From: a virus
Length of the DNA stretch: 64,000 nucleotides
Direction: 5' to 3' (one strand)
UHGV virus genome: UHGV-0149956
Part shown: piece by piece, positions 20,712 through 37,573 of the stretch
Layout of the letters: each line of letters begins with the position of its first letter
How positions within the stretch are numbered: the stretch's first letter is position 1
The notes under the pieces: generated by a model
Told to the model about the DNA's origin: nothing
Seen by the model: the letters and a program-made list of their open reading frames with translations, nothing else
The model's database searches: none
Translations under genes and position numbers: made by a program

Positions 20712-20746
20712 TCAAGTTAAAGGCCGGAGTTCTCCGGCCTCCTCCT

Positions 20747-21562
20747 TTAGCCAAGGCGCTTACGGCGCAGTTTCATTGACTTTTTGCGGGCAAGTTTTGC
20801 CGCGCCGGTCTGGGCTTTTCGACGCGCTTTTTTCAGCGCCGATTTTTGAGCCGCAGTCAGACGTTTTTTACGCAGGCGTTTACGGATGAGTTTGATCTCA
20901 CCGTTACGAACAACCTTCTTAAATGCTTCAGTCAGCATTTCATCAGAAGTGCCAGCTACAACAAACGCCGCTTCCAGTTCGTCACGGTCGTCGCTATCTA
21001 AACCAGCGATAGAGGCACCAACATCAGCTGCTGCGTCGTCGTCTTCATCGTCAGCCAGTGCTTCGATCAGGTCATCATCTACACCGCATGCTGCGAGGAA
21101 GTCAGCAACATTTGCCCATGCTTCGTTATAGGCATCGTCCTGTTCTTCTGTAACTTCGGCGTCGTCGTCATCAGAGATACCAGCGATAGCCTGAACGAAA
21201 CCATCAAGGGAGTCGAAAGTCAGATCACCGCTATCAGCCCAGGCGAAAACGGCGTCGGCCGCATCACTCAACGCATTCTGCATAGCACTTCGATTTGCAG
21301 CTTCCAGAATCATCTGGTGCGCCTGTTCGACGGTCCATTCTTTACCGTCTTTCCCTTCCAGGATTTGCTCAGGAGCCGGGGCAGATGGAACGTTATCGTT
21401 AGTCTGTGCCGCCGGTTCCGGATTATTATTAATAACCGGATCTGTTGGCGGTTCGGCGCTTGCTCGGGCAGACTCCATCAGCTGCACAGGATCAGAGTTC
21501 AAAGCGAAACGGGACAGTCCATTCCCCAAAAATGCCCCGGATTGAAAAAAGTTTTTGCTCAT
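20747..21562 (-). CDS. Acidic protein with highly basic C-terminal tail
   Basis: Asp/Glu-rich body, C-terminus KLIRKRLRKKRL...KLRRKRLG. Confidence 0.35.
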   Translation of the reverse strand: MSKNFFQSGAFLGNGLSRFALNSDPVQLMESARASAEPPTDPVINNNPEPAAQTNDNVPSAPAPEQILEGKDGKEWTVEQAHQMILEAANRSAMQNALSDAADAVFAWADSGDLTFDSLDGFVQAIAGISDDDDAEVTEEQDDAYNEAWANVADFLAACGVDDDLIEALADDEDDDAAADVGASIAGLDSDDRDELEAAFVVAGTSDEMLTEAFKKVVRNGEIKLIRKRLRKKRLTAAQKSALKKARRKAQTGAAKLARKKSMKLRRKRLG

Positions 21563-21571
21563 TGTATTCCC

Positions 21572-23161
21572 TTACTTAATAAGCAGCGGTACGCCCTGGA
21601 TACGACGGGCTACGCCAGTCGGGCAGCAGGCCCAGACTACTTCCCATTTATCGAATTCCGCCTGCGTAACTTTCAGCACATACGGTTCTGTACCGTCAGC
21701 ATCAGGATCACGAGGAGCCACCAGAGCGCCGGAGGCGACAAAGCGATCTAAAAGTTTGGTCATCCCTTTAGTCAGGCCAGCCGCAGTAATACCGTCCGGG
21801 CTATGCTTCATCTGTCGGGCTAACTGGACAAAGAAACGGCTGATTGCATTCATCAGGGATGGGACGTGCTGGAAGTGCAGATAGTTATCCTGCGTGCAGC
21901 AAGTTAAAGCATCGTCGATGATCATCTGGCCAGAGGTGCCAACAGATACTTTATTGAGACGGCCCTTGACCATTGCTTCTTCGTCCGGGGTATCTTCCGG
22001 ATACAGCGGTTGAATTGACGCACGAGCAATGACGGCACGTTCTTCACCAGCCGGTGAGTAATGCCAACCGCCGACATCAGAGTTTTTCTTGACGCCGCGA
22101 GCTTTCGCCGCATACGCCGCGCCAGACAGACCGAAGACCACACGGGATTGGGTCCATTTGTCTTTGCAGGAGAACGGGAAGTGATAGACAGCACAGCTTA
22201 CATAATCGGCACCAAGTAAACCGGTATCTTCAACAGCAGAGATCGCTTCCGTGTACGTCAATGTCGGTTTGACATCAAAGAAGCCATCAATCAGGCGATC
22301 TGCACAGATTTTACCTAATGCGGTGATAGCCGCATTGTCATAGCAGCCCAGGCCAAGAACAGCGGTGTACATGTACGGCGCATTATTCAGCACTTTAACC
22401 GCACGTAGGTACGCAGCGGTTGAGATTTTCGACTGATCACCGTTGGTACCACCAGTGAACGCCAGCGATTTTTTATTTGTTACTTTCGCCGTCGAAATCA
22501 GCTCTTCATTAACAACCGCGCGCAGATATTTAGAACGGGCTTCCAGAGCCGTAGGCAGATAACACAAGCGGCCCATGTCATCTTTCGCTTCTTCCGCCAA
22601 AGATACAGTGTGTGTCTCCAGGGTCGTTACCACGCCGAGCGAAGTCGTCTGGGTCAGTTTTAAGAGGAAGCGTTCATTACCCGCGCTATCCGCTGTTGCC
22701 GTTTCGATGGTTAACTCACGGGTAGGTGAAATACACGGATCACCATCATCAACGTAGATAGCAAAGGCTTCGCCACTATCAAGTTCAATTTCAGAACCGT
22801 ATGGCAACGCACTGTAAGCCGGTTCGCCTGATTCATCGAACATAATAATCGGGAACTTCGCATCATCCGGAACAGCACGAACAACATAACCAGACGTTTG
22901 CTGAATAGCTTCGTACACATGACGAATTGGTTCGAACTGTGAGCCGGAAGACGGCTTCAGCGGTTCGCCGAGAACATCTTCGTAATTGGACTCAGTAACC
23001 GCCAGAACAGTAAACGGCTTGCCACGCGCAAATACGCCAATACCAGCCCACAAGCTGCTATTTAATGCAACACCGGTAGATAACGTCGCATCGGCATTGA
23101 TCGGGCTAACCGCGACGCCGGATGCATTACCTAATGACTGTTGAATTGAATATTGAGACAT
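21572..23161 (-). CDS. Contractile tail sheath protein
   Basis: 529 aa; size and composition typical of myovirus sheath proteins; operon context with tube-sized genes. Confidence 0.5.
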   Translation of the reverse strand: MSQYSIQQSLGNASGVAVSPINADATLSTGVALNSSLWAGIGVFARGKPFTVLAVTESNYEDVLGEPLKPSSGSQFEPIRHVYEAIQQTSGYVVRAVPDDAKFPIIMFDESGEPAYSALPYGSEIELDSGEAFAIYVDDGDPCISPTRELTIETATADSAGNERFLLKLTQTTSLGVVTTLETHTVSLAEEAKDDMGRLCYLPTALEARSKYLRAVVNEELISTAKVTNKKSLAFTGGTNGDQSKISTAAYLRAVKVLNNAPYMYTAVLGLGCYDNAAITALGKICADRLIDGFFDVKPTLTYTEAISAVEDTGLLGADYVSCAVYHFPFSCKDKWTQSRVVFGLSGAAYAAKARGVKKNSDVGGWHYSPAGEERAVIARASIQPLYPEDTPDEEAMVKGRLNKVSVGTSGQMIIDDALTCCTQDNYLHFQHVPSLMNAISRFFVQLARQMKHSPDGITAAGLTKGMTKLLDRFVASGALVAPRDPDADGTEPYVLKVTQAEFDKWEVVWACCPTGVARRIQGVPLLIK

Positions 23162-23221
23162 AACTTTCCCTGTTATGCGCCCCGCACGGGGGCGCTATGT
23201 TAAACGGAGAACTTCCCCTGA

Positions 23222-24949
23222 TTACTCAGAGTCACCGGCATCAATCGTGTCGCCGCTTATGAAGTTAAGCCCGCCTTTTTTGGCCATTGTCAGCGTTACA
23301 CGAGTGAAGTAATCAGCGCCGTTGCGTGGGTGCATATCGTTGATAGCCGAACCCCACAGCGTGGTACGGTTGACCAGCGCCGGAGTGGTCGGATGCTGGA
23401 ACGGGATGGCCGGGACAGCATCACCAGTCACGAAGCCTGCTTTACCCGGATTTTCATCACGGACGTAGCACAGCACATCCATCGAGCTGAACTGAATGTT
23501 CTCTGTCGTTAAGTTCTTACAAATACCAGCAGGTACTTCGTACACTTTCACGTTACCGAACAGGGTACCGATGTAGTGAACATACGGAGTCTGGATATAG
23601 TCTTCGGCTGGCTGGAAGAAATCCTTCGGCAACTGTTTGAAGAAAGATGCTGCATCAGCACCAGCAAACATCCCCATCGCACCAGAAGATTTAACGCGCT
23701 CAATAATGTCGCGATATACAGTCTGGAATTTGCCACGAATGATGGTTGCCCATACATCAAAGGACTGGTTAACCGGCAGAGCGATGTCAAAGGTGTCGGT
23801 CGCAAGAGTGCGCCAGATCATGATGCGAAGACGCAGCATATCCTGTTCATGAGACAGGTATTCCTTCAGGGTGCGGAACTGTAGGGACCCCAGGTCCAGA
23901 CCAAATTCACGCTGTGCTTCATACGCCGCCTGTACCGTGTGCTCAGCCGCGATAACGAACTGACTTGGGAACAGGGTGTATTTCTTCATTTCGTGGTTGA
24001 TCAGCGGGATCAGCTCAGGAGCGGCTTCAATATTGATTTCCGTCTCAATTGCGATCTCAGTGCCTTTATCCGGCGCTTTGGAGAACGACAGGGCAATCTG
24101 ACCAATGTTGTAGTTCAGAGAGCAGGTAACAGTGATTTGCTCACCAGCAGCATTAGTAAACGAGTGAAGTAGGCTGCCGGAACCGTTATCAACAACAGAC
24201 TTAATACGGTTAACGTAGATGTTAGTGCGACCTTTTCGGATTGGTACATTCTGGCCTTCGAAGTCTTCCATCTTGAAGGTTGCGGTTTTGCTGGTGCCAT
24301 CGGAGCTTGCCACCAGCACATAGCGGCGACGTAACTGGCTGTACACACCGACGGATTGCATGTCCAGAACATCACCAGCAGCATAAGAACCAAAAGATGA
24401 ACCTGCCACGTTAAAGACTTCATAGATGTCGGACTGGTCACGCGTAACCGGAATGAAGGTACACGCATCAGCGGTAGCTGCCCCCAACTGAACAGGCAGG
24501 ATCATCGCGAGGAATAAAGGCAGACGCATAACACCGTCAGAAACGCTCATCATCTCTGCTGCGACGGATTCCAGCATCGCTTTATTAGTGGCATCCATGC
24601 TATTGCGGGTGGACTCAATCAGGCAGTTTTCCAGCGTCTGGTGGCAGGAGGCCAGAATTTCCGGACGCGGCATAGATTTATGTGCTGCGGCGTAGTCAGC
24701 CAGTGCACTTGCCCACGCTGTAGCGATTTGAGCGGTGGCATTATCAGAGATACCCGCAAAAACTGGGTCTTTACGTGCAGCTTCAAGGATAGATGCGGCA
24801 CGCGCGGCATCATCTTTAATGAATTGGTTATCAGTACCGAACTGCGCAGTGCTTGCCCAGCCAAGCACAGCTTTAGAGCGTTTTGCGATATCTGCAATAC
24901 GATTCTGGTATTCGCGTAAGTTACTCAATTTACTCTTCCTTAAACACAA
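23222..24949 (-). CDS. Major virion structural protein (possible major head protein); start probably internal
   Basis: 575-aa ORF at head of structural operon. Confidence 0.35.
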   Translation of the reverse strand: MCLRKSKLSNLREYQNRIADIAKRSKAVLGWASTAQFGTDNQFIKDDAARAASILEAARKDPVFAGISDNATAQIATAWASALADYAAAHKSMPRPEILASCHQTLENCLIESTRNSMDATNKAMLESVAAEMMSVSDGVMRLPLFLAMILPVQLGAATADACTFIPVTRDQSDIYEVFNVAGSSFGSYAAGDVLDMQSVGVYSQLRRRYVLVASSDGTSKTATFKMEDFEGQNVPIRKGRTNIYVNRIKSVVDNGSGSLLHSFTNAAGEQITVTCSLNYNIGQIALSFSKAPDKGTEIAIETEINIEAAPELIPLINHEMKKYTLFPSQFVIAAEHTVQAAYEAQREFGLDLGSLQFRTLKEYLSHEQDMLRLRIMIWRTLATDTFDIALPVNQSFDVWATIIRGKFQTVYRDIIERVKSSGAMGMFAGADAASFFKQLPKDFFQPAEDYIQTPYVHYIGTLFGNVKVYEVPAGICKNLTTENIQFSSMDVLCYVRDENPGKAGFVTGDAVPAIPFQHPTTPALVNRTTLWGSAINDMHPRNGADYFTRVTLTMAKKGGLNFISGDTIDAGDSE

Positions 24950-25065
24950 GGCACTTGTGTGAATCCCTTTTCGGAAGAGATTTTATTGAAAGTCACTTGT
25001 TGACTTTCTCGTGACAAGCAATTTTTTTATTTTTTCGGGAGGAGGGGAGGAAGGTAAAATCCAAG

Positions 25066-25148
25066 GTGAAATCGTGGCGATTTCACCTTGAAATTTTAGA
25101 GTAATTTACTTTAAAAACAGTCAGTTAATAGTGAAATTTGAATGGCGA
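25066..25148. promoter_or_regulatory. parS-like partition site
   Basis: GTGAAATCGTGGCGATTTCAC and GTGAAATTTGAATGGCGA: ATTTCAC heptamers plus TCGCCA hexamers immediately downstream of parB. Confidence 0.65.
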
Positions 25149-25152
25149 AAGT

Positions 25153-26154
25153 TTAAGGCTTCGGCTTTTTATCGAGGCTCTTTCTAAGGATATGCCCAAT
25201 CATCCTGTCGAGTTCTTCCTGTAACTCTTTTGAGAGTCGATTAAACTCATAAGAAAATGCACGGCCTTTCACGCGCTTCCTTGCAAAGCGATCCTTGTCC
25301 TCAAATTTCCATAATTCAGTAACTACGGACTTATCTTTAGAACCTTTATCCGTGAGTAGTGAGGCTTCCTTTGTTATCAAGCGCAGGATTTTATTTTTAA
25401 CTTCATCTTCGGCCATTTCTTCAATGGATAAGATGTCGTTTATTTCCGGGGATATGTTTTGAATAAGCTGATCAAACTCTAAATTCTTGTTCCCCATTTC
25501 GTCGCCAACAGCACAAAGCGTTTTGTAGTCCGAAAAGGTTAATTCCGACTGCACAGGGAAAAGGGCGACTAATTCTTCCGGAGCACTCGCTGCCTGGAGA
25601 GCACGCGTGACCTTCGCCTGAGACAGCCCTTCTTTGGCTGCAATATCCTTCTGACTCATCCCATCATTTTTCATTCGCATCAAACGCAGACCTATTTCTC
25701 GAATGCTGTGCTGCAATGCTGTCTGAACGTCTTTCGCTAAATTTTGCGCTTCCTGAACGCTGATCTCCTGGTCCGTGACTAAAACCCGCAACCCTACGTT
25801 CTCTAAGATGGCAGAAGCTCGACGCCGGGAACCATCCAAAATTTCAATTTTCCCTGTAGCCCGTCTGACACCTATTGCAGGGTAAAATTGCTGATGCTTA
25901 ATAGTGCTTCGGATACTTTTTAATGATTTTGGCGTAAGAGATGCCTGGTCACGCCCGTTGTTATGCTGATCAACAAAGGTATCGCTTTCTACCTGGTTCG
26001 GAGGTATTACCTCTTCAATAAATGTGGCCTGGCGACCAGTTGATAACTTGAATACCTGCTCGACTCGATCGCCAGAGGCTGAAGAACTATCAAATCCGCT
26101 TAATATTGAAGGATTAAGGGTTCGCCCAATTGTTGGTCTGTTTTTCTTTGACAT
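25153..26154 (-). CDS. parB: Partition protein ParB
   Basis: 333 aa; ParB-like motif GSRRRASAILENVGLRVLV and HTH region; follows parA. Confidence 0.8.
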   Translation of the reverse strand: MSKKNRPTIGRTLNPSILSGFDSSSASGDRVEQVFKLSTGRQATFIEEVIPPNQVESDTFVDQHNNGRDQASLTPKSLKSIRSTIKHQQFYPAIGVRRATGKIEILDGSRRRASAILENVGLRVLVTDQEISVQEAQNLAKDVQTALQHSIREIGLRLMRMKNDGMSQKDIAAKEGLSQAKVTRALQAASAPEELVALFPVQSELTFSDYKTLCAVGDEMGNKNLEFDQLIQNISPEINDILSIEEMAEDEVKNKILRLITKEASLLTDKGSKDKSVVTELWKFEDKDRFARKRVKGRAFSYEFNRLSKELQEELDRMIGHILRKSLDKKPKP

Positions 26155-26170
26155 GGGGGTTTCTTACTCC

Positions 26171-27367
26171 TCAGTTAGATCTGATAAATTCAATACGGTC
26201 AAAAACTGCTTTAGCAAAATCTTCCGCAGCAATTCGCGCGTTCTTCAATGCATCAGCACTACCAACATACGTTGCCGGGTTAGCTGAAATAACAGTGTCA
26301 AAAGACTCGCCGCAGCGTTCAAAACCGTCAAGGCGAGGGAGGACAACATCAAGCATATCCCCACCGAACACTTCTTTAGCCAGGCTATGGCAATACTTAT
26401 GGTCTGCCTTGTTACTCAACTTGGACATAAATCCAATGTTAGTTGCAAGCTGACACTCACAGCCTTCATCCGAAATGAGTTTCACCAACTCAGGAAGGCG
26501 GGCAACGTATTTAAGCGATGAGTGGAAATCAACCGTTGCAGGCGGCAGAGGTGTAAACAGTATATTGGCCGAGGCCAAAGCATTTTTCAGGAAGGCGTCA
26601 AGGTGAGGACCACTATCAACGAGGATAAAGTCATAATCGCTCTTCAGCTTATCAATCACATTTTCTTTCAGGACTGCATGGATGTTCTGACCCGGTAGAT
26701 GCTCATTGCACAGCTCTCTCCAATCGGATGCAATAAAGGCATCGTCAATCGACGCAGGCATAACGTCAACCCCAGGTACAACAGAAGGAACAATAAACTC
26801 CTCTAACAGCTCTTCACGGCTTACATTCTGCAACATAGCCTGTGCAGATGTTGCGTTTACGATACCAATAGAGTGTTTATGGCTTAAAAACATCGTTGCT
26901 GAAGATTGCGGATCAAGGTCAATAACCAGAATCCTTAAATCTTCCATCAGAAGATGAGGATGAGCACGCATTGCATGCGCCAGAGAAACCGTCGATACAG
27001 TTTTTGACACACCGCCTTTAAGATTGGAGATGAAAATCACATACGCTTCGCTGTAGCGATCCCGGTATTTTGGCACTCCGCGATGTTCATATATGTCAAT
27101 GATGTTCTGAATTGACATCGCATATTTCATTGAAGAGCCAGCAGGGCGTTTATCGAAAACATAACCCTTTTCTTCCATTTCACTTACGGCATAGTCAACG
27201 TTCGCACGAGTCAGTAGAGGCAATTTTGCCAGTGCCGCTTTCGCATAGACCTGGTAAAACTCGTTCGCGTGTAGCTCATCCTTTTGCAACTGTACTTGTT
27301 CAGTCAGAACATTGAGCATTCTATTTGCTCTTTGAGCAACCTTGTGAAGCTGGCTGGAATCACTCAT
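26171..27367 (-). CDS. parA: Partition ATPase ParA (type Ia, long N-terminal extension)
   Basis: 398 aa; deviant Walker A NLKGGVSKT; ILVIDLDPQ motif. Confidence 0.85.
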   Translation of the reverse strand: MSDSSQLHKVAQRANRMLNVLTEQVQLQKDELHANEFYQVYAKAALAKLPLLTRANVDYAVSEMEEKGYVFDKRPAGSSMKYAMSIQNIIDIYEHRGVPKYRDRYSEAYVIFISNLKGGVSKTVSTVSLAHAMRAHPHLLMEDLRILVIDLDPQSSATMFLSHKHSIGIVNATSAQAMLQNVSREELLEEFIVPSVVPGVDVMPASIDDAFIASDWRELCNEHLPGQNIHAVLKENVIDKLKSDYDFILVDSGPHLDAFLKNALASANILFTPLPPATVDFHSSLKYVARLPELVKLISDEGCECQLATNIGFMSKLSNKADHKYCHSLAKEVFGGDMLDVVLPRLDGFERCGESFDTVISANPATYVGSADALKNARIAAEDFAKAVFDRIEFIRSN

Positions 27368-27535
27368 CGAAAGTCATCCTTTATGCTGTATTTTTGAATT
27401 TAATTAAAAATGCTGCATAAAATAATAATGTATGCGTAGATGCTTGTACATAGCATTCTCTGCATGTTTGGTTCATTTTGCACGATTGAGAGTTACAAGG
27501 AGGGCACAAAAAAGCCCCGTTCAGGGGCATCAGTG

Positions 27536-28345
27536 TTATTTGCTAAGAGCAGCGAATAATCGTTCGAAATCGATAGTATCTATAGCACGCGTAAGCGCCG
27601 GAAGTTCAGCCTCAAAGTACCCGTGTCGATCGTAAAAGAAGGGACCGAAGAGCGAGGCATGTTGGATTCTACTTCGCCCCAGCCCGGACACACAGTTAAG
27701 CCCATTACCGGCTAAAAGGCTAAAAAACTTCTCTGGATTATCGTGGTAAAGCTGGGAATCAATGGTGGCGGTTAACTCTTCCATAGGGAAGCACACCCGC
27801 CCTGTATCCCAGGGATATTTAGTCCGAAGCATAAACATTGCTTTCAGCAATTCACATTGAGCGCGGATCGCGTCCGGTTCATAGCCAGATATGGAGACAT
27901 AAGCCACGTCCCTCATTCCTGCGTCATCTTTGAAAGTCACGATAGAAGTAACATCCAGCTCTTTTTCGAAAGAGCAAGCAGCATCTACTGGACGCTGAAG
28001 TAAATCATTCGACTTAATGCGCTCGAGAATCCCTCCCCACATATCATTTAGATATTCGATATGAGCCAAAACCTTATCAAGACACTCTCGTGTAAACCAT
28101 TCAGTATGCCCGCCACCGACGCTTTTCTCCCACGGCGCATTCCAGGGGAAAAAGGTTGCGTGTAAAGCCCGCTCAAGATTAACCATTGCCAAACGCGTAC
28201 CACGATAGACCCGTGAAAGCGCAAAATCGGGACTCACTTGTAGTCCTTTAAACCGTGCCAATGGACCACATGAAATGCCGATTTTAAAAGTATCTCCGTT
28301 CTCTGGCACCAGAACGTAGAGGTAGTGTTGTTTCTCTTCTTGCAT
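27536..28345 (-). CDS. T5orf172/GIY-YIG-like domain protein (cargo gene between iterons and parA)
   Basis: N-terminus YLYVLVPENGDTFKIGISCGPLARFKGLQ fits the T5orf172 motif. Confidence 0.4.
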   Translation of the reverse strand: MQEEKQHYLYVLVPENGDTFKIGISCGPLARFKGLQVSPDFALSRVYRGTRLAMVNLERALHATFFPWNAPWEKSVGGGHTEWFTRECLDKVLAHIEYLNDMWGGILERIKSNDLLQRPVDAACSFEKELDVTSIVTFKDDAGMRDVAYVSISGYEPDAIRAQCELLKAMFMLRTKYPWDTGRVCFPMEELTATIDSQLYHDNPEKFFSLLAGNGLNCVSGLGRSRIQHASLFGPFFYDRHGYFEAELPALTRAIDTIDFERLFAALSK

Positions 28346-28380
28346 ATCAATACCACTGCTTGATGAGAACCGCGCAAATG

Positions 28381-28518
28381 TTGACTATGCGCGAAGGTTA
28401 ATGTGAATAGTTGACTATGCGCGATGTGACTACAGTCAAAAGTTGACTGTAGTCGATTTAACTCCACCAAAGATCGACTATGTAAGATATTGTCGGGAGA
28501 AACGTTGACTATACGCGA
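28381..28518. repeat. Iteron array downstream of repA (incA-like copy-control locus)
   Basis: TTGACTATGCGCGA at 28381 and 28411, TTGACTGTAGTCGA at 28443, TTGACTATACGCGA at 28505, plus inverted GTGACTACAGTCAA. Confidence 0.7.
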
Positions 28519-28637
28519 TGAAATGCCCCTAAAAGCCATCTCAATAGCGACTTGCAGAATATTGACGCCAGCAAAAATCCACCAGCGTCAACGAATGTCG
28601 CCTATAGTCAACTTCTCGCTATCGCATATAGTCAATA

Positions 28638-29522
28638 TTATGGATTGCGCTTATGGATCTGGAAGCCGATTTTCCTGCCGTTTTTTATCTCTGAAAATTT
28701 AAGATATTCAATAGCTTCCAAATCTTTCATGGCTTTTCTGATAACGCTATTTTGCACGCTAACGGATGATTTGAGATTAAGCCTCGCTCTAAGGCGCTCA
28801 ATGCTGACAGGTGCCGGGTTGGCGGGTAGAGCCTCAAAGAATGTATACAGTACCTTGGCCGTCTCTTTGCGCCCTAGTTTATCCAGCATCTTCAGCTTCA
28901 GGATTCGCTTATAGTCAACATAGTAAAGTTCAGATAGCTGTTTCTGCGGCTGGATCTCGATAACATCAAGCTCGGTATTCAGGCTGCTATATGCCAACAA
29001 GTTGACGTTAATGTTATTGAGATGACCTTTTGCCGCCGGGAAGCGGAATTTGACAACTGTCTGCTGAATGCGTGTCAGAGAGTCATCAATACTTTTACGG
29101 AACGCCTTTGAAAGGCGCTTACGTGGATAGCCGCATCGATCGGCAAACTCGGAGAATGGCAGGGTGATTATGCCGTCATCATCAGGTGCGTAGTCAAACA
29201 ACGCGGAAGTTATGCCCACCCACACCTTAAAATCAGTATCCATATCCAGGCGTGGACCATGAATTTCAATTCCCTCATAGCCTTCCTGCTCAACAATTTT
29301 GAGGCTTGATAGTTCTTCAGTTGCGTTCGTTGTGTTTGTTGTAACTGACGATCCGCGACGTAGCGCCACATTGGTAGATTTTAAGGTTGGCACAAACACA
29401 CCTAAGCGCAACAAAGCGATGGGTTGTATAGTGCTGTTGTTATTGGGCTTCAGGCTGTGGATTTCTCCTGTATTTCCTGCAACTTCTTCAACGCTAAGGA
29501 AGCCTTTACTTTCTTCCGGCAT
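28638..29522 (-). CDS. repA: Iteron-binding replication initiator RepA (RepFIB/P1 RepA family)
   Basis: Motifs NNNSTIQPIALLRLGVFVPTLKS, ITGPRLDMDTDFKVWVGI, AKVLYTFFEALP; ATG at 29522 with GGAG 9 nt upstream. Confidence 0.8.
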   Translation of the reverse strand: MPEESKGFLSVEEVAGNTGEIHSLKPNNNSTIQPIALLRLGVFVPTLKSTNVALRRGSSVTTNTTNATEELSSLKIVEQEGYEGIEIHGPRLDMDTDFKVWVGITSALFDYAPDDDGIITLPFSEFADRCGYPRKRLSKAFRKSIDDSLTRIQQTVVKFRFPAAKGHLNNINVNLLAYSSLNTELDVIEIQPQKQLSELYYVDYKRILKLKMLDKLGRKETAKVLYTFFEALPANPAPVSIERLRARLNLKSSVSVQNSVIRKAMKDLEAIEYLKFSEIKNGRKIGFQIHKRNP

Positions 29523-29603
29523 CACGGTTTCTCCATGTGTGGCGCGGCCTGACGTCAATTTGGATGGCTGTTATCAACAGCTGTGAATATTCAGACTCTA
29601 AAA

Positions 29604-29814
29604 TCGCTTACAGTCAATGTTTCTGTCGCGTATAGTCAACAATAAATCGCGTGCAGTCAACAATAAATCGTGCACAGTCAACATAAAATCGCGTATAGTC
29701 AATGTTGATCCCATTTCAGGCCAGTAATGACGCGGCTTACAGCGATCCGGGATCTTCTTTGGATCTTCCTAGGTTCTCTTTAGGATCTGTTTATTGGATC
29801 TATGCTGTGGATAA
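29604..29814. other. Plasmid origin region: iterons, GATC cluster and DnaA box (oriR/incC-like)
   Basis: Five iterons CGCGTATAGTCAA-like at 21-22 bp spacing (29604-29701), five GATC within 29744-29800, DnaA box TGTGGATAA at 29806-29814. Confidence 0.7.
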
Positions 29815-29857
29815 GTTGAATAAACCGGCCAACAAAGCCGGTTGGAAGGAAGTCATA

Positions 29858-30250
29858 TTATTCTACGCTTTCGATAAGAAGACCATGTTCATAACATTTA
29901 AGCTCATCGCCTTCATACAGGAATTGGTATCCAACACCACCATCTTCATGGACATTAGGGAATAACTCATAACTCACTGAAGAGCAAATCACACCAATGC
30001 AGCGATCAACTCCTTCTCGTTCTTCAGTGCTGAAAAAATCCTCTTCGGTAAGAACATGAGTACATTGCTCATCAGCATAGGTCGGAAATACATGCTCAAT
30101 GCAATCCGGGTGTTTTAAACCAAGCTGATCGGCAAGCTCGAAAGCACGACGGTATTGTTCAGATCCTGGCTTGCCAACAGTGATTTGCTCAATTTTGTAG
30201 ATTGAAGTCGCTTTGTTGATAGTTTGCTTTACTGTTACTTTATCAGACAT
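29858..30250 (-). CDS. Hypothetical acidic protein
   Basis: 130-aa ORF downstream of origin; hairpin 29824-29850 after its 3' end. Confidence 0.4.
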   Translation of the reverse strand: MSDKVTVKQTINKATSIYKIEQITVGKPGSEQYRRAFELADQLGLKHPDCIEHVFPTYADEQCTHVLTEEDFFSTEEREGVDRCIGVICSSVSYELFPNVHEDGGVGYQFLYEGDELKCYEHGLLIESVE

Positions 30251-30261
30251 AAAAATCCCTT

Positions 30262-30516
30262 TTAGTTACCGCTAATAGCTCGGTTGTAATCATTAACGTT
30301 GCGATTCTTCCTGTTAATCCCCATCAGCATCGTTTCTGTATCGAGGATATACGCTGGCAGATCATCAAAATATTCACTGCTAAACTCTGGCATCCTGCAC
30401 ATAAATGCACTTTTGGGGGCAGGGTGGTTAACCTTTGTCGGCGTCGGCGTTAAATTCGCTGATCGACTCCCGGAGCAACCGCTGAGTGTCAGCAGGAATA
30501 CGCTGGCGAACATTAC
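30262..30516 (-). CDS. Outer-membrane lipoprotein, o-spanin-like (Rz1-type), overlapping frame
   Basis: Lipobox LLTLSGC followed by Pro-rich TPTPTKVNHPAPKS; start inside the upstream gene in another frame. Confidence 0.45.
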   Translation of the reverse strand, partial: VMFASVFLLTLSGCSGSRSANLTPTPTKVNHPAPKSAFMCRMPEFSSEYFDDLPAYILDTETMLMGINRKNRNVNDYNRAISGN

Positions 30517-30850
30517 CCGCCGCAACCAGTTGTTTCTGAACTTCAGCTTTTCGTTCCATTTGCCTGTCAGCATACTTGGCTTGTTCTGATTCATTTTTCA
30601 CTTCCTGGCTGTGAAAATGTTGCTCTGCTTTGTTCATCGTCTCGATGGTCTGGTTAAGATCCATTATTGACTTATCACGTTCCTTAACAGCCTGATCAAG
30701 ACTGCCAATTTTCTCCATGGCTTGCTTTAGCTGATGACGTTCCCATGCAAACCCAGCACCAACAAGTGCGCAAATCAGAACAAGAACACCAGTAGCAGCA
30801 AGTTTCTCCTTCAAAGACAAAGCTGTTTTTAACGTAGAAAAGAATGACAT
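30428..30850 (-). CDS. Membrane-anchored coiled-coil protein, i-spanin-like (Rz-type)
   Basis: N-terminal TM helix GVLVLICALVGAGFAW then charged coiled-coil; 3' end overlaps the lipoprotein gene. Confidence 0.45.
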   Translation of the reverse strand: MSFFSTLKTALSLKEKLAATGVLVLICALVGAGFAWERHQLKQAMEKIGSLDQAVKERDKSIMDLNQTIETMNKAEQHFHSQEVKNESEQAKYADRQMERKAEVQKQLVAAGNVRQRIPADTQRLLRESISEFNADADKG

Positions 30851-30889
30851 GTCTTCCTCCTGAAGAAAAATTATCAATGAAGTCCTTTG

Positions 30890-31735
30890 TTACTGTGCCG
30901 CTTTGTTTAATTCATCAAGAACAGAATCAGGAACCAAAGCGGCGACTGCGCTGGATGTGCTGGTCTTATTTGCTGATGCTTCCGCAAGCGCGGTACCGAT
31001 AGCATGGTTATAAGCAGTTATGGCTACGTTGGCGCTTTCCTTCGCTCGTTCATACTGCTGTTGTAACGCAGTTGTGGGCGCTGTTGTCTGGTTGAAAACA
31101 ACCCCAAACTGTTCAGTTGCTACTTTCAGAGATTCAATTTGCTCTTCTGTTAGTGCTGGTGGGGGAGTGGCAGTGCCGCCGCCTGAACCAGAGCCTGACG
31201 AGCTTCCTGAGCCAGTGTTAAGGGTCTGGTTAATCTCCCCCATAGCAGCGACTAAACTTGATGTATTAAGCGCGTTAACAGCGTCCTCAAGCGATTTAGT
31301 AATATTCACATCACCAATGGCAATAGAGATCGGCAGTTCTGAAACTTCTCGCTCATTAGCACGGCAGTAAACATCCCAACCAATATCGAGTTGAAGCAGC
31401 ATTGACAGATCTGCATAACCAGCCAACAGGTCCGCGTGCTTAGTTGCCAGTTCTCCAATGTTCGTTAAGCCGGTTGTGGTTGTTCTGATCGTTGAAACAT
31501 AGCTGGTAATAGTGTCGGGATAGACAATTGTATCCAGAATTAATCCGGTCAATTCTTCTGCAAGCAGTTTTGCTGTGTTAGCACTGTTTCGTGCCGATGT
31601 TATGGCACCAGGTGTTTTCATCCCACCGGCGGCGGCCAATTTTTTATATGCGGATAACTGGTAGTCTTTTTCCAGCATGATATCTCCTAACTTACCTGAA
31701 CCAGGCCGTCTCCGGACGCTACGGTAGATCCGCAT
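30890..31735 (-). CDS. Hypothetical protein with Gly/Ser linker
   Basis: 281-aa ORF with SGSGSSSGSGSGGG tract; start possibly internal. Confidence 0.35.
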   Translation of the reverse strand: MRIYRSVRRRPGSGKLGDIMLEKDYQLSAYKKLAAAGGMKTPGAITSARNSANTAKLLAEELTGLILDTIVYPDTITSYVSTIRTTTTGLTNIGELATKHADLLAGYADLSMLLQLDIGWDVYCRANEREVSELPISIAIGDVNITKSLEDAVNALNTSSLVAAMGEINQTLNTGSGSSSGSGSGGGTATPPPALTEEQIESLKVATEQFGVVFNQTTAPTTALQQQYERAKESANVAITAYNHAIGTALAEASANKTSTSSAVAALVPDSVLDELNKAAQ

Positions 31736-31971
31736 GAAACAGGGTCACCAACGCATACGATCCCTTTACCATTGACGGTAAACCATGCCCTGGTTGATAT
31801 AGCTTGCCCACCGTGCGTACTGTTTCCATCGGTATGCTGTGCATATTGCTTACCATCAACTAACACTTCTACTCCGTTGACTTTAAGTAGTGGTTCACTC
31901 TCTACAGGAGGCCTGGATGGGAATCCTCCGTGCCCCGAACAAATGCTGTCTTTTGTTGCAATACTTGCCAC
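31687..31971 (-). CDS. PAAR-like domain protein
   Basis: 94 aa, Gly/His/Cys-rich with PAAR-like spacing (SGHGG, HGG, VCVGDPVSCGSTV). Confidence 0.45.
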   Translation of the reverse strand: MASIATKDSICSGHGGFPSRPPVESEPLLKVNGVEVLVDGKQYAQHTDGNSTHGGQAISTRAWFTVNGKGIVCVGDPVSCGSTVASGDGLVQVS

Positions 31972-32052
31972 GTCATCACCAATTATTTGCTCTGATTTTC
32001 GTTATTTTAACTCAGGTTGTTTGTGGTCTAAATGGAGTTCAATTATTGCAAA

Positions 32053-32069
32053 ATTGCTCTAATAAATAT
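32053..32069 (+). promoter_or_regulatory. C1-repressor-type operator 17-mer upstream of uhr-hrdC-dmt
   Basis: ATTGCTCTAATAAATAT. Confidence 0.65.
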
Positions 32070-32140
32070 TGTTTTTTATGTCGTATTTTCGGTACCATTC
32101 AGCCATCGCCCTTCAATGGGCATTTGTTTGGAGTCGTCAG

Positions 32141-32425
32141 ATGCAGATGGAGCTAATAAGCCGCAAAGAGTTCGATAGCCGTGTAACCAGCGGTGAACTC
32201 GACAACTTGCAGGCTATCAAGGTGAAAGAAGGCTTTTGCCTCATTGGGAATCAGAGCGGAACAAATCGCGTTTTTATGCTTCGCCGTACGGATTTGAAGC
32301 CATTTGTCTGGAAGAACGAAATTGGTCCCAGCTCATACGCTCAAACGAGGGGGTGCCACAACCTGGCCTTTTTCTACAAAGACGAGCTTTCTGTGGTTGA
32401 TATTCAAGGGTTACAACATGTTTAA
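32141..32425 (+). CDS. Small protein upstream of hrdC
   Basis: ORF whose stop overlaps the hrdC start; start chosen at MQMELISRK. Confidence 0.4.
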
Positions 32426-33323
32426 GCACTGGAAAAACATTACTATTTATAAACTTTCTCGTGAGGCGGATCTGACCGACTTAGAAGATAAAAAGAAAAT
32501 GATCCTTTTCACGCCATGCGGTAGTCAGGATATGGCCAAGTTCGGTTTTGTATCTCCATTTGGTGATAATTCCGAAGTTATCGCTATGCATGGAAATGGT
32601 TTTATCCTTGTTGAAGCAAAGCGCGAAACAAAAATTCTTCCCCCGCCGGTTATCCAGCGAGCTATTCAAGAAAAAATTGAAAAACTTGAGCAAGAACAAG
32701 CGCGTAAACTGAAGAAAACAGAGAAGGACTCCCTGAAAGACGAAGTTCTGCATTCTCTTCTGCCACGGGCTTTTTCAAAGTTTTCTGTTATCCAGGCGAT
32801 CTACGACGGTTCAACTAAACGTATCTATATCAATGCCAGCGCGCGGCAGGCAGAGGATATGCTCGCGCTTATGCGTAAGTCTCTGGGTTCTCTTCCTGTT
32901 GTTCCCCTGAGTGTTGAAAATCCCATTGAATTAACGCTGACCGACTGGGTACGTGATGGTAGTGCTCCACAGGGATTTCAAATGGGGGATGCGGCAGAAC
33001 TTAAGGCAGTGCTTGAGGATGGCGGTATTGCCCGGGTGAAAAAGCAGGATTTGGGAAGCGATGAAATTTCCACACACCTGGAAGCTGGCAAGCTCGTCAC
33101 TAAGTTGGCACTCGACTGGCAGAACCGCATTAAATTTACACTGGACCATAACTTCAGCCTTACCAGCGTCAAATTTGCGGATGAATTGCTTGAGCAGAAC
33201 TCTGATATTGATAGTGAAGATGTTGCGCAGCGACTGGACGCAGATTTCTTCCTGTTGACCAGTGAAATTTCGTGCCTGGTTGATGCTCTGGTAAATGCCC
33301 TTGGTGGAGAGGCTAAGCAGTGA
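32418..33323 (+). CDS. hrdC: Recombination-associated protein RdgC homolog
   Basis: [52 protein letters not shown] closely follow E. coli RdgC as recalled; SD AAGGG. Confidence 0.85.
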
Positions 33324-35584
33324 AAGAGCTGTGCTATGGATCTGTTTGCAGTGGAATTGAAGCCGCGAGTATTGCCTGGGAACCGTTGGGTATGCGTCCG
33401 GTGTGGTTTGCTGAAATCGAGTCTTTTCCATCTGCCGTTCTTGCGCACCGCTGGCCCCATGTCGCCAACCTTGGCGACATGACAAAACTTGCCAAAAAAG
33501 TCCTGGCTGGGGAAATCGAATCCCCTGATGTGCTCGTCGGGGGAACACCTTGTCAGGCATTCAGTATCGCGGGATTACGTGGTGGGCTTGATGATGAGCG
33601 TGGCGCGCTAACTTTAAAGTATGTGGAGCTTGCAAATGCAATTGACGACAAACGGGCTGAGTCATTTCTCAAACCAGCCGTTATCGTCTGGGAAAATGTC
33701 CCAGGAGTCTTGTCTTCGGCAGATAACGCCTTCGGATGTTTCCTTGCCGGATTGGCTGGAGAAGATGTGCCATTTGAACCAGGTGATCGACCTGAATCAG
33801 GAAAAAGCAACGCGTTCTGGCGGTGGGATGGCAAAACCGGTTGCCATGTTCCAAAGTGGCCGCAGTGTGGTTGTATTTATGGACCGCAGCGAAAGGTGGC
33901 CTGGAGAATCCTTGATGCCCAATACTTCGGAGTGGCACAACGACGCCGACGCGTGTTTGTTGTCGCAAGTGCTCGAACAGACCTCGATCCCGCAACGGTA
34001 CTTTTTGAGTTCGAAGGCGTGCGCCGGAATATTGCGCCGAGCCGAAAAAAGAAGGAAATCGCTTCCGCCATTACTGCAAATGGCGCTGCAATCAGTGGCG
34101 AAAGCCTAAATCCATGCCTACACGCTGGCATGTCCCCCGGTATGAAATCGACGAAAGCCGTAAACGGTTTCAGGATGGCGGCATTTGGGGAATATATTGA
34201 CGATGAAACCGCATCGACAGTAAAGGCAAGAGACTTTAAAGATGCCACTGACCTTGCCGTTTTTAGCAGCACTGGAGCAGGTTTTTGGTCAGAAGGGCAT
34301 GGTACATTGCGGGCGCGTGAGCAAGAAAGCCATGAGCATCTTGTTACATTGGCTTTTCCTGAGCGTATGAGTGGTACACAACATGCAGCAACTAAGAATA
34401 CTTCACCATCTCTAATGGCTCAAAATCCAACTGCTGTTTGCTATGAAGTAAGAAACGAAGAAGTAGCTGTCCGCCGTCTTACCCCTGTCGAATGTGAGAG
34501 ACTTCAAGGTTTTCCTGATGGGCATACGTTGATCCCTACGGAAAAGCGTAAAAAAGTTAATTCAGATGAACTGGCATATCTGCACAATCACTATCCAGAT
34601 TTAAGCGAAGAAGAGGCCGCGATGCTTGCAGCTGACGGACCGCGTTACAAAGCGATCGGCAATAGTATGGCAATACCAGTAATGCGCTGGATTGGCGATC
34701 GGATTACTAAGGCCGTATGTCGGCAGAAAGAAGGAAGTGAAACAAAAGAGCGAAAAGTTAAACCAGCGGCAGAATTCGAACGGTCCATATTCAAATGGGC
34801 TGGTGGAAAATTTGGTGTTCTGGAACAAATCTTTCGCTATTTGCCAGAAGGGAAGCGCCTGATCGAACCTTTTGTCGGTGGCGGAGCTGTCTTCACGAAT
34901 GCCGGATACCAGGAAAATCTGCTAAATGATGTGAATGCTGACCTGATTAACTTTTACAAGACTCTGCAACGCGAGGCGCATTCACTTATCACACTGGCGC
35001 ATCGGTTTTTCCAGGACTACAACACACAGGAAGGATACCTGGCAGTACGGAATGCGTTTAACAAACAAGTCTATGATGATTTACATCGCGCAGCGGCGTT
35101 TTTGTTCCTGAACCGACATTGTTTTAACGGATTGACGCGTTACAACCAGGCCGGTGAGTTCAATGTCGGTTATGGGAAGTATAAAACTCCGTATTTCCCA
35201 TTACAGGAGATGGAAGCCTTCCTCGGTGCGGAAGGGCGTTCTGAGTTTGTATGTGGTGATTTTGCTGCGGTAATTGAAGCTGCCGGAGAAGGAGATGTCA
35301 TTTTTTGCGATCCGCCATATGAACCGCTTCCAAATACAGAGGGATTCACGAACTATTCCGGTCATGACTTTAAGTTTGAAGAGCAAAAACGCCTGGTGTC
35401 TCTGTTGACGGATGCTCATCGTCGAGGTGCAAAGGTTCTCATTACTAACAGTGGCGCGCCAAACATCAGAGAGCTTTATCATGACAGTGGCTTCAGAGTG
35501 GAACCTCTTTTTGCCAGACGTTCTGTGTCTTGTAAGGGGGACACTCGAGGTGTAGCTCATGACGTTTTGGGTATATTGCTCTAA
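33320..35584 (+). CDS. dmt: Fused DNA methyltransferase: N-terminal C5-cytosine MTase plus C-terminal Dam-like N6-adenine MTase
   Basis: 754 aa; C5 motifs [11 protein letters not shown] and VWENVPG; Dam motifs FKWAGGK and CDPPYEP. Confidence 0.85.
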
Positions 35585-35591
35585 TAAATTT
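35575..35591 (+). promoter_or_regulatory. C1-repressor-type operator 17-mer
   Basis: ATTGCTCTAATAAATTT, perfect match to recalled consensus; overlaps dmt stop. Confidence 0.7.
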
Positions 35592-35765
35592 ATTAGTGTA
35601 ATATCGCCTCAATGAATCGTGATTTATAGAGCGATTTAGCTGTTAGCCGCGACAGGCGCGGCGGTAAGCATGGCTGGGCCTAGTCCTCCCAGACAAACCA
35701 CCGAGTTGCCAGGTTGACCATGCGCCTAAGTGGCAACGCCGAAGTGCGTTACGAGCTTCCAGTTT

Positions 35766-35790
35766 GCCCATCTTCGGGTGGGCTTTTTTA
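35766..35790 (+). terminator. Rho-independent terminator
   Basis: GCCCATCTTCGGGTGGGC hairpin followed by TTTTTTA. Confidence 0.6.
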
Positions 35791-36253
35791 GGGTTTTCGT
35801 CATGGTTAGCGACTTTGCGGCGGTTTAGAACCCGACCATTAAAGTAAATGCAAACGATGATCTGATGATGGTAGCGGCCTAAGAAGCCAGACGCCACGGG
35901 GTATGAGTCGTCCCCCGTCAAAAAATCGACCGCAGAGTGTCCCCGTCTGTGTATTAGGGAACGGGGAGGCACAACAGGTAAGGGCGCTGGTGTGATTAAC
36001 CAGATGAACGAGAAGGGGCCATCTGTTGGTCAGCGTCCTTTCCTGTTGCGTCTTCTTTTCAGCGTAACAGCGGTGCTTAACAGCACTTTGGGTACAGTTC
36101 CACGAATTTACGGGTATATCCCGTCATGCTGAAGGCGCTAATCACGCTGGAAGCCAGGGTTGTGCATCCCCTGTTACCGAATTGCAGCCAGGGCGCGGTG
36201 CGCCGAAAAGCATACGGAGGTGGAAGCCCTCGCCGGAGACGTACCCGGCAAGT

Positions 36254-36329
36254 GATGGTGTAGCTCAGCGGTTAGAGCGGTTGACTGTTAATCAACGGGT
36301 CGATGGTTCAAATCCATCCACCATCGCCA
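36254..36329 (+). tRNA. tRNA-Asn (anticodon GTT)
   Basis: Cloverleaf built by hand: acceptor GATGGTG/CACCATC, D-stem GCTC/GAGC, anticodon loop CTGTTAA, T-arm GATGG-TTCAAAT-CCATC, 3' GCCA. Confidence 0.85.
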
Positions 36330-36331
36330 AT

Positions 36332-36407
36332 GCCGGTTTAGCTCAGTTGGTAGAGCGCCTGCCTTGTAAGCAGGATGTCAGCGGTTCGAGTCCGTTAATC
36401 GGCACCA
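36332..36407 (+). tRNA. tRNA-Thr (anticodon TGT)
   Basis: Acceptor GCCGGTT/AATCGGC, anticodon stem CCTGC/GCAGG with loop CTTGTAA, T-loop TTCGAGT, 3' ACCA. Confidence 0.85.
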
Positions 36408-36420
36408 GCACAACAGGTAA

Positions 36421-36484
36421 GGGTATTTTGCGACGTCGGAGATCGCCGAGCTTGGCAGAGGGTTCGAATCCCTACGAAGTACCC
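36421..36484 (+). ncRNA. Truncated tRNA-like element (acceptor, D-like and T arms, no anticodon arm) within an extended helix
   Basis: GGGTATT...AGTACCC acceptor pairing, GCGA/TCGC stem, canonical T-loop TTCGAAT; flanking CAACAGGTAAGGG / CCCTTACCGTTG extend the helix. Confidence 0.3.
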
Positions 36485-37097
36485 TTACCGTTGTGATGAA
36501 GTGCAGCTCTTTGAAGCAACCAGAAGATAAGCATCTGGCTTCACAACATAAACCGCAGGAACGACCAATAAACGGTAGTCCGTATGGAGAACACCCCGTT
36601 GAGGAAGAGGCCTGGCCGGAACCGTAACCGGCACTACAACGTTGAGAACACTGGCGTAACGGGGTCATATCCCAATCTACGAATAAATGTTGCGTTGCAG
36701 CGTGACAACCAGTGTTCTCAACATTGTGGTGAATGCACAGGCTGATGTGCCGCAACTACAGTAGTGCGCGCTTTGCGGGGCTTGCTACAACCCTGTGTCG
36801 GAGTTCAGCACCGACCATCACAGTTCGATTCTCTGGCATGAGCATAACGCTGAAATAAGTCCAGTCTGGTGCGGCCCGATCACCCGCCGTTAGCTCCACG
36901 AAACGGAGCACGTAACAGGTAAGAGCATTCTCCTGTAACGGGTTCATATCCCAATCTACAGGTCCACCAGGAATGCTCTTTCCGTTGCGGTGAATGCGGC
37001 TAAGCGCACGCGGAACAGTTAAAACAATCCTCCTTAATGGTTAAACATTCCGGCGTTAATTGTTAACTGGTTAACGTCACCGGGAGGCACTCGGCAC

Positions 37098-37114
37098 CGC
37101 AATCTAATAAATAT
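37098..37114 (+). promoter_or_regulatory. Degenerate C1-operator-like site upstream of the TerB-ban operon
   Basis: CGCAATCTAATAAATAT, 11/17 to recalled consensus with conserved CTAATAAAT core. Confidence 0.3.
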
Positions 37115-37138
37115 GTCACTTTTATTGAGGGATAACCA

Positions 37139-37573
37139 ATGTTCGGTAAATTGTTCGGCAAGAAAGTCGCTTCTGCAAAAGTAGAGCTGAAAAAAGTTGA
37201 GAATCGCGATCTGATGGAGGCCATCATCGGTGGCTGTTTGTTGGTGTCTGCCGCTGATGGTGAAATCGAAAAAGAAGAAACAGCGAAACTTGATCAGCTT
37301 GTCCGCTCTAATCCGCGTCTTAGTCATTTTGGTAACGAAATTACTGCAACAATTACCCGCTTTACCGAGCAACTGGAAGCTGGCTTCCGTGTTGGTCGCA
37401 TGAATATCCTTCGCGAAATTGAAGATATCAAAAACGATCCAAAAGAAGCGGAAGAAGTATTCGTTAACATGCTGACAATTGCAGAAGCGGACGGTGAAAT
37501 CGAGCCAGCAGAACACAAAGTACTGGAAGAAGTAGGCCGTCGTTTGGGTCTTCGTGTGGAAGATTATCTGTAA
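37139..37573 (+). CDS. TerB-like (tellurite-resistance family) protein
   Basis: 144 aa with duplicated ADGEIE-x-EE motif characteristic of TerB. Confidence 0.6.
   Translation: MFGKLFGKKVASAKVELKKVENRDLMEAIIGGCLLVSAADGEIEKEETAKLDQLVRSNPRLSHFGNEITATITRFTEQLEAGFRVGRMNILREIEDIKNDPKEAEEVFVNMLTIAEADGEIEPAEHKVLEEVGRRLGLRVEDYL

Follow-up and report, generated by a model that had tools for sequence, protein, structure and literature searches.

P1-like phage-plasmids of E. coli and Salmonella are vehicles of ESBL and other cargo genes, and their IncY and p0111 replicon types therefore already serve as typing markers. In the IncY replicon of P1 and P7, whose RepA initiators are 100% identical to each other, a unit of about 1,590 bp combines the initiator gene with two arrays of a 19-bp iteron, GATGTGTGCTGGAGGGAAA. 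Five origin iterons (incC copies 10-14) are set 21-22 bp apart, and nine copies lie downstream of the gene, namely incA copies 1-6, at a spacing of about 31 bp, and incA copies 7-9. The oriR core holds five annotated Dam sites in heptamers and tandem DnaA boxes at its outer end. The RepFIB and IncFIB(K) replicons of pO157 and Klebsiella share this layout, with a DnaA box, exactly five GATC sites, iterons at 21-22 bp, rep and downstream iterons. Both P1 oriR and the RepFIB-type REPI replicon are reportedly dependent on methylation. Among P1-like elements, JL22 has a repA' gene (p0111) and an unknown gene in place of repA (IncY), and 24 of 55 are of the p0111 type (PMC9603915). The RepA of SJ46 shares 42% identity with that of P1 (PMC5241659). 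In the literature we found no description of the p0111 iterons and no experiments on the particular replicon studied here, and the searchable papers gave no account of its GATC core or exact junctions.

The window analysed, 64,000 nucleotides of the virus genome UHGV-0149956, very probably contains a p0111-type low-copy plasmid replicon of a P1-like phage-plasmid. Its RepA is 100% identical to those of the phages RCS47 and phi456 and 99.7% identical to those of the phages SJ46 and JL22. Over 1.6 kb, the replicon DNA of these four elements is 97.7-99.9% identical to that of the window; in each it sits in the same slot on a P1 backbone, with parA on one side and upfA on the other, and is accompanied by the same T5orf172 gene. 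This is the same replicon, with nothing of substance different. Compared with RCS47, the window has three substitutions in iterons, all at degenerate RYRYR positions, and none in a GATC or DnaA box. The assignment to p0111, a type name used in papers based on PlasmidFinder, was made via JL22, typed as p0111 in PMC9603915. Judged by its sequence, the replicon belongs with the iteron replicons of the P1-RepA/RepFIB family. It has a homologous initiator, in-phase direct iterons just ahead of the rep gene, a second array downstream of it, and a DnaA box with a GATC cluster beyond the origin iterons. An earlier note, made from the letters of the window, had already made out a complete iteron replicon, and these elements bear it out.

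The initiator gene repA (28638-29522, minus strand) encodes 294 amino acids from an ATG preceded by GGAG, the same open reading frame being called by RefSeq. The protein belongs to the Rep_3 family (WH1-WH2); it passes the Pfam cutoff for Rep3_C (27.1 bits against 21.1), falls just under the gathering threshold for Rep3_N (21.8 bits against 22.4) and matches the profile phrog_775 with an E value of 3e-134. A sequence search of the PDB with RepA returned matches at chance level only. Identity to P1/P7 RepA is 42.3% over 272 amino acids (E 9e-71), and the RepFIB and IncFIB(K) initiators are slightly closer, at 47-49%. A relative outside the P1 backbone, the RepA of the D6-like plasmid pNCYU-26-73-5 (CP042620.1), is 85% identical. 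Within and beside the iterons, a consensus scan and reading of the minus strand by eye revealed no convincing -10 element of a sigma-70 promoter for repA. Autorepression of repA is a candidate only, as a promoter placed inside the iterons in the P1 style was not found.

Across the 64 kb, the iteron pattern TTGACTRYRYRCGA has 11 matches with at most one mismatch, all of them confined to 28381-29702; 0.52 were expected by chance, and 11 were reached in none of 100 shuffles. With weaker sites included, the locus holds 13 candidate iterons of all grades. The origin array (29604-29702, minus strand) consists of five iterons starting at 29604, 29626, 29647, 29668 and 29689, spaced 22, 21, 21 and 21 bp apart, exactly as had been noted from the letters. 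On the other side of the gene, the direct part of the downstream array (28381-28518, plus strand) has iterons at 28381, 28411, 28443, 28474 and 28505, with spacings of 30, 32, 31 and 31 bp; the site at 28443 carries three mismatches, and that at 28474, TCGACTATGTAAGA, is degenerate. The inverted part (28598-28635, minus strand), with iterons at 28598-28611 and 28622-28635, abuts the repA stop codon. The four to five downstream iterons reported before are thus present on the plus strand (four and a degenerate one), and two on the minus strand had been missed, which brings the array to six or seven sites in two orientations. A further iteron-like 14-mer lies within the repA coding sequence (28905-28918, minus strand).

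The designation of the two arrays as incC-like and incA-like agrees with P1 in number, spacing and orientation. The origin array corresponds to incC copies 10-14, the direct block to incA copies 1-6 and the inverted block to incA copies 7-9, the total downstream being nine in P1 and six or seven here. The iteron itself, TTGACTATACGCGA, is unrelated to the P1 19-mer, in line with the difference stated in the earlier note. Closer in sequence is the IncFIB(K) iteron ATGTCTACTGTATGCGAT, which agrees with ATGTTGACTATATGCGAT of the window in 15 of 18 positions. The RepFIB and IncFIB(K) replicons nevertheless have another iteron specificity and are carried by conjugative or large F-type plasmids with no phage backbone. 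Membership of the RepFIB incompatibility group finds no match in the window, where RepA is 47% identical and the pO157 repeats, for example ACTACAGCTTATAT, differ.

The replicon is part of a longer swapped cassette of 2,345 bp (27470-29814) that stands in for the incA-repA-incC-origin core of P1 between the par promoter and upfA. In a segment-wise alignment, P1 homology runs at 98.3% as far as 27469 and picks up again, at 96.1%, from 29815, so that both flanks are about 96-98% identical to phage P1 DNA. The extent of the swapped unit had been taken as the replicon; this part stands, and a T5orf172/GIY-YIG-family gene, extra with respect to P1, belongs to the unit as well. This passenger gene (27536-28345, minus strand, 269 amino acids) sits at the cassette's left edge, and a terminator-like hairpin with a T-run (27514-27528, minus strand) is found directly past it. 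The protein scores 26.9 bits against PF10544 (cutoff 20) and matches phrog_2876, a family of unknown function. The gene was found in 401 plasmids and 12 phages, at least 90% identical in all of them and always with the cassette. An independent mobility or defence role for the gene was considered and rejected, as homologues at E≤1e-5 occur only with the cassette and neither PADLOC nor NCBIfam gave a match.

The position of the T5orf172 gene at the cassette edge and its strict co-distribution with the cassette raise the idea of a homing-type nuclease, which would cut the IncY locus of a co-resident P1-like element and convert it to the p0111 cassette. The GIY-YIG-clan domain of the protein suits such a role, as do the highly conserved P1 flanks, which would favour recombination. 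If true, this would explain both the near-identical flanks and the roughly equal frequency of the two replicon types. We consider it very improbable, since nuclease activity and target are purely hypothetical, linkage after a single acquisition accounts equally well for the co-distribution, and the related replicon of the D6-like plasmid does without the gene.

The outer part of the origin contains the five GATC sites and the DnaA box that had been pointed out from the sequence. The GATC sites, at 29744, 29751, 29762, 29784 and 29797, span exactly 57 bp (29744-29800) and form the densest cluster in the window; four of them lie in GGATCT heptamers, and a sixth GATC is found at 29707. Two null models put the probability of finding at least five GATC in a 57-bp stretch somewhere in the 64 kb at about 0.005-0.009. 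The cluster can be proposed as a putative unwinding core under the control of Dam and SeqA. A perfect DnaA box, TTATCCACA (29806-29814, minus strand), one of only two in the window, marks the outer end of both the origin and the cassette, and a variant with one mismatch, TTATCAACA (29571-29579, plus strand), lies in the gap that separates the start of repA from the origin iterons. The palindrome GCTGTTGATAACAGC (29567-29581) was examined as a RepE-style dimer operator and dropped, not being conserved in the D6-like relative. The five GATC sites align with the Dam sites, likewise five, that are annotated in P1/P7 oriR, and the outer DnaA box aligns with the tandem boxes. P1 differs in having two such boxes where the window has one, and the fourth GATC of the window occupies another heptamer slot. 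As a smaller possibility, selection may hold the number of GATC sites at exactly five across the P1, p0111, RepFIB and IncFIB(K) cores despite the shifting of sites between heptamer slots.

The replicon of pNCYU-26-73-5 keeps every one of these elements, even though its DNA is only 76% identical to that of the window. Its iterons follow the same plan of five and four plus two, the 14-mer within repA recurs identically at the corresponding position, and there is only one outer DnaA box. In its D6-like genome the replicon lies between tub and pmgB, where D6 has another Rep_3 gene, orf42, and it differs further by a perfect inner DnaA box, TTATCCACA, in the interval from the origin iterons to the start of repA. 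This relative bears directly on whether the origin could be a hybrid, with imported iterons and repA joined to a GATC/DnaA core left over from a resident P1 oriR. The idea was first suggested by BLAST, in which P1/P7 homology reaches left as far as 29718-29720, a little beyond the last iteron, and the alignment of the core with the Dam sites and DnaA boxes of P1 would fit it. It was rejected on segment-wise identities, and we regard it as very improbable. The core (29703-29814) is only 71.8% identical to P1/P7, yet 96.1% identity begins immediately to its right. In the D6-like plasmid, the core is 89.4% identical within non-P1 flanks, and the DnaA box is precisely where that homology ends. Two further traits, a lone DnaA box and a displaced fourth GATC, unite the window with the D6-like relative and are not found in P1. 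Because the core is closer to the D6-like plasmid (89.4%) than to P1 (71.8%), and P1-level identity (96.1%) starts only at 29815, the cluster of GATC sites and the DnaA box next to it are taken, on sequence identity, to have arrived with the cassette, the whole origin being incoming.

Control of replication in the P1 manner is the likely mechanism of the p0111 replicon, by homology with P1 and RepFIB, because P1, RepFIB and IncFIB(K) have the same layout. RepA monomers would bind the five in-phase origin iterons, and host DnaA would bind the outer DnaA box, possibly with the weaker inner one as well. The adjacent core of GATC heptamers would then be opened for helicase loading, only if fully methylated by Dam, and after firing SeqA would sequester the hemimethylated core. 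The six or seven downstream iterons would titrate RepA and handcuff the origin, which would keep the copy number near one per chromosome. Methylation-coupled initiation at this origin, proposed before, is plausible by the same homology.

An additional link had been drawn between replication control and a Dam-like methyltransferase gene of the element itself. The gene is indeed there: dmt (33320-35584, plus strand) is intact, encodes 754 amino acids, the length of the P1 protein, and lies 3.5 kb from the replicon in a stretch 97.3% identical to P1. Methylation of the origin GATC sites by the element's own Dmt could provide independence from host Dam or set the timing of initiation, and the P1 annotation does give GATC as the Dmt target. 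The link itself did not hold up, and such a role of Dmt is most unlikely. A C1 repressor operator (32053-32069, plus strand, one mismatch to the consensus) precedes the uhr-hrdC-dmt operon, as in P1, where the annotation has the operator at the equivalent place, Odmt, control dmt. Under P1 biology, dmt should therefore be repressed in the plasmid prophage. The five-GATC core is also present in the RepFIB of pO157 and in the IncFIB(K) of a Klebsiella plasmid, neither of them a P1-like element. Moreover, dam hosts reportedly cannot maintain P1 plasmids although P1 carries dmt.

That the locus is no mosaic at all, only the canonical IncY replicon of P1/P7, is suggested by its P1 layout and its P1 neighbours (ParA 99.7% and ParB 100% identical to P1, upfA to dmt about 97% at the DNA level) and is refuted by the alignments, with RepA at 42.3%, unrelated iterons and no P1/P7 megablast match across 28300-29711. 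This comparison had been named in the earlier note as the one that could overturn its proposal of a replicon replacement on a P1-like backbone, and the mosaic stands. Its novelty does not: the p0111 replicon on a P1 backbone is common and already known, the swap having been published as p0111 versus IncY (PMC9603915, PMC5241659).

Replicon type determines plasmid incompatibility. Because its iterons and its RepA both differ from those of P1, the p0111 replicon should be compatible with the replication control of IncY (P1/P7). Replication-based exclusion by IncY P1/P7 plasmids should not affect a P1-like prophage that carries the p0111 module. Since P1 par is retained, partition-based conflict with these plasmids should persist. 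What is added here is descriptive: a map that places the iterons, GATC core and DnaA boxes and gives the exact cassette junctions, the arrival of the whole origin with the cassette, and the swap of a related module into a D6-like phage-plasmid too. None of this changes the current understanding.

Among 5,426 complete genomes of E. coli, 402 contained the cassette, for the most part on plasmids of roughly 90-130 kb, and it was also present in 374 PLSDB plasmids; a scan of genome contigs for the replicon gave one identical locus only. A tblastn search of PLSDB with RepA identified no donor plasmid for the cassette. Matches of at least 80% identity were almost all P1-like, those below 60% were of the RepFIB type, and none fell between 60 and 80%; the one record examined in the 80-90% band was D6-like. 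Names given to this replicon vary: MOB-suite labels an identical one 'IncHI1B', and several GenBank records call the gene 'RepFIB replication protein A', which is a family-level label only.

The iteron replicon at 27470-29814 is real, complete and well formed, and it belongs to a type already described, the p0111 module of P1-like phage-plasmids. With up to one mismatch, the iteron TTGACTRYRYRCGA has 11 copies across the 64-kb window, every one within 28381-29702, against 0.52 expected by chance and with none of 100 shuffles as high. Five origin iterons on the minus strand (29604, 29626, 29647, 29668 and 29689; spacing 22/21/21/21 bp) lie directly upstream of a 294-aa ORF, the initiator gene repA. 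On its other side, direct iterons on the plus strand at 28381, 28411, 28443 (3 mismatches), 28474 (degenerate) and 28505 are spaced by 30/32/31/31 bp, and two inverted ones on the minus strand (28598 and 28622) adjoin the repA stop codon. An iteron-like 14-mer, TTGACTATAAGCGA, is also present within the repA coding sequence (28905-28918, minus strand).

Five GATC sites (29744, 29751, 29762, 29784 and 29797) are clustered within 29744-29800 beside a perfect DnaA box, TTATCCACA, at 29806-29814 on the minus strand. This cluster is the densest in the window, with a probability of about 0.005-0.009 for one like it anywhere in 64 kb. Our reading of 27800-30400, together with repeat searches, matched the earlier description of the region almost to the base, including the five upstream iterons at 21-22 bp and the five GATC sites within 57 bp next to a DnaA box. 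Of the four to five iterons announced for the other side, four good ones and a degenerate one were seen; the two inverted copies had been missed. A one-mismatch DnaA box, TTATCAACA (29571-29579), lies between the iterons and the repA start, inside a palindrome, GCTGTTGATAACAGC (29567-29581), that also contains the iteron-like half TGTTGA. The same interval of the D6-like plasmid pNCYU-26-73-5 (CP042620.1) has a perfect TTATCCACA and lacks the palindrome.

The repA ORF (28638-29522, minus strand) encodes Rep_3 initiator domains, with Pfam Rep3_C above threshold and Rep3_N just under it, and its product matches phrog_775 (E 3e-134); NCBIfam and PDB sequence searches returned nothing informative. 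It is 42.3% identical over 272 residues (E 9e-71) to the RepA proteins of P1 and P7, which are identical to each other, 47% to RepFIB of pO157, 48.6% to that of Klebsiella IncFIB(K) and 85% to RepA of the D6-like plasmid. A consensus scan and inspection of the minus strand by eye, within and next to the iterons, found no convincing repA promoter.

The surroundings are those of P1. Positions 20155-27469, covering gene 23, parS, parB, parA and the par promoter, are 98.3% identical to P1 (the parB and parA products 100% and 99.7% at the amino acid level), and positions ~29720-37013, from upfA to dmt, are 97.3% identical; between 27469 and ~29720, P1 DNA homology is absent. A right junction at 29720, by which a foreign RepA and its iterons would have been grafted onto a P1 origin core, is rejected on the basis of segment-wise identities. 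The segment with the GATC cluster and DnaA box (29703-29814) is only 71.8% identical to P1/P7 against 89.4% to pNCYU-26-73-5, while 29815-30300 is 96.1% identical to P1/P7 and unrelated to that plasmid. These values set the cassette at 27470-29814 (2,345 bp), with the entire origin imported as part of it. Its core resembles P1 oriR through homology at the family level.

The P1/P7 annotation lists five incC iterons 21-22 bp apart on the repA strand, nine incA iterons (six in one direction at ~31 bp, three inverted beside the repA stop), five Dam sites and DnaA boxes: the plan is shared with the window, whereas the iteron sequences differ. In the alignment, the single DnaA box of the window lies opposite two tandem boxes in P1. 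The fourth Dam site of P1, GGGATCT, is replaced by GGTTCTC, and GGACCTG of P1 reads GGATCTG in the window; one GATC has thus moved to the neighbouring heptamer slot and the total is still five. Exactly five GATC sites are found in the origin cores of P1 (L004, 8832-8886), this replicon, pO157 RepFIB (L007, 1204-1253) and IncFIB(K) (L008, 1253-1306). In pO157 RepFIB, TTATCCACA is followed by its five sites 11-13 bp apart; IncFIB(K) has a near-consensus DnaA box, iterons at 21-22 bp resembling those of the window at 15/18 positions, and downstream iterons too.

With DNA just 76% identical, the D6-like plasmid retains the five origin iterons (22/21/21/21 bp), a downstream set of four direct and two inverted ones, five GATC sites with the shifted one, and the single DnaA box. 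The intragenic 14-mer is also retained, identically (L005, 4330-4343), and could be an additional RepA site or mere coding conservation. The p0111-related replicon of this plasmid sits between tub and pmgB, a slot occupied in phage D6 by a different Rep_3 gene, orf42 (L011, 1342-2097); phage-plasmids of a second lineage have therefore swapped replicon modules as well. Compared with the P1-like phage RCS47, the window shows no substitution in any GATC or in the DnaA box at 29806-29814, and three in the iterons, all at degenerate RYRYR positions.

By homology with P1 oriR/incA and RepFIB, four steps likely apply to this replicon. RepA monomers would fill the five phased origin iterons, and DnaA would bind the outer box, a single box being reportedly enough in P1 according to Abeles et al. 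in 1990. Melting of the GATC-heptamer core would require its full methylation by host Dam, the hemimethylated core being sequestered by SeqA; methylation dependence is said to have been described for P1 oriR by Abeles and Austin in 1987 and Abeles et al. in 1993, and for the RepFIB-type REPI replicon by Gammie and Crosa in 1991. The downstream iterons would titrate RepA and handcuff the origin.

The earlier note also suggested that replication control may be tied to the element's own methyltransferase gene dmt, which is intact (33320-35584). This link is unsupported. A C1 operator with 1 mismatch to the consensus (32053-32069) lies upstream of uhr-hrdC-dmt, where the P1 annotation places Odmt, which controls dmt; dmt is accordingly expected to be silent in the plasmid state. 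As the five-GATC core also occurs in RepFIB of pO157 and on the Klebsiella IncFIB(K) plasmid, neither of them P1-like, any methylation coupling would be to host Dam. The P1 C1-operator consensus ATTGCTCTAATAAATTT, with up to 3 mismatches, has nine matches in the window (15436, 17098, 32053, 35575, 35586, 45719, 49343, 49392 and 51484) against 0.3 by chance, which fits an intact P1-type immunity circuit.

A 269-aa T5orf172/GIY-YIG-clan ORF (27536-28345, minus strand) lies in the cassette as well, followed by a terminator-like hairpin (27514-27528). By tblastn this ORF occurs only with the cassette: 401 plasmids and 12 phages carry it, with 90% identity or more in every case. The D6-like relative lacks it, and neither PADLOC (defence systems) nor NCBIfam gave a match. 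The gene may be a passenger; a homing role, the sole mildly novel reading left, is unlikely.

Replicon replacement on a P1-like backbone, as the earlier note proposed, is right, given the P1 flanks and an initiator and iterons that are not those of canonical P1. It was also already published: SJ46 and RCS47 share the same RepA, just 42% identical to that of P1 (PMC5241659, 2017), and in JL22 repA (IncY) has given way to repA' (p0111) together with gp57, an unknown gene, 31 of 55 P1-like phage-plasmids being IncY and 24 p0111 (PMC9603915, 2022). Both genes serve as screening targets in a 2025 preprint. Among the papers searched, none names both p0111 and iterons, and the fine anatomy, which follows directly from homology, may be unpublished. 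According to PMC5241659, ParA/ParB of RCS47 match those of P7 exactly and are far from those of P1. Those of RCS47 (L003, 854-3068) and the window (25153-27367) are P1-type (99.7% and 100%), with ParA just 58% identical to that of P7, which contradicts that sentence. Elsewhere, P1 homology is interrupted at 37013-37604 (~590 bp), where a 187-aa ORF (37034-37597, minus strand) lies where P1 has its tciA region, among the variable regions listed in PMC9603915.

A 1.6-kb region of the replicon is 97.7-100% identical in phi456, RCS47, SJ46, JL22 and further phages and is found, at no less than 80% length coverage, in 374 PLSDB plasmids; the cassette, at coverage of at least 80%, is present in 402 of 5,426 complete E. 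coli genomes. Eight of 477 cassette matches in these genomes are chromosomal, one of them 100% identical (H219, NZ_CP093011.1, 4393179-4395523); they may reflect the integration of P1-like elements or joins made in assembly. Annotation of the p0111 replicon is inconsistent: the plasmid NZ_CP069684.1, whose replicon is identical, is typed 'IncHI1B' by PLSDB/MOB-suite, and several GenBank records name p0111 repA 'RepFIB replication protein A' or 'replication helicase'.
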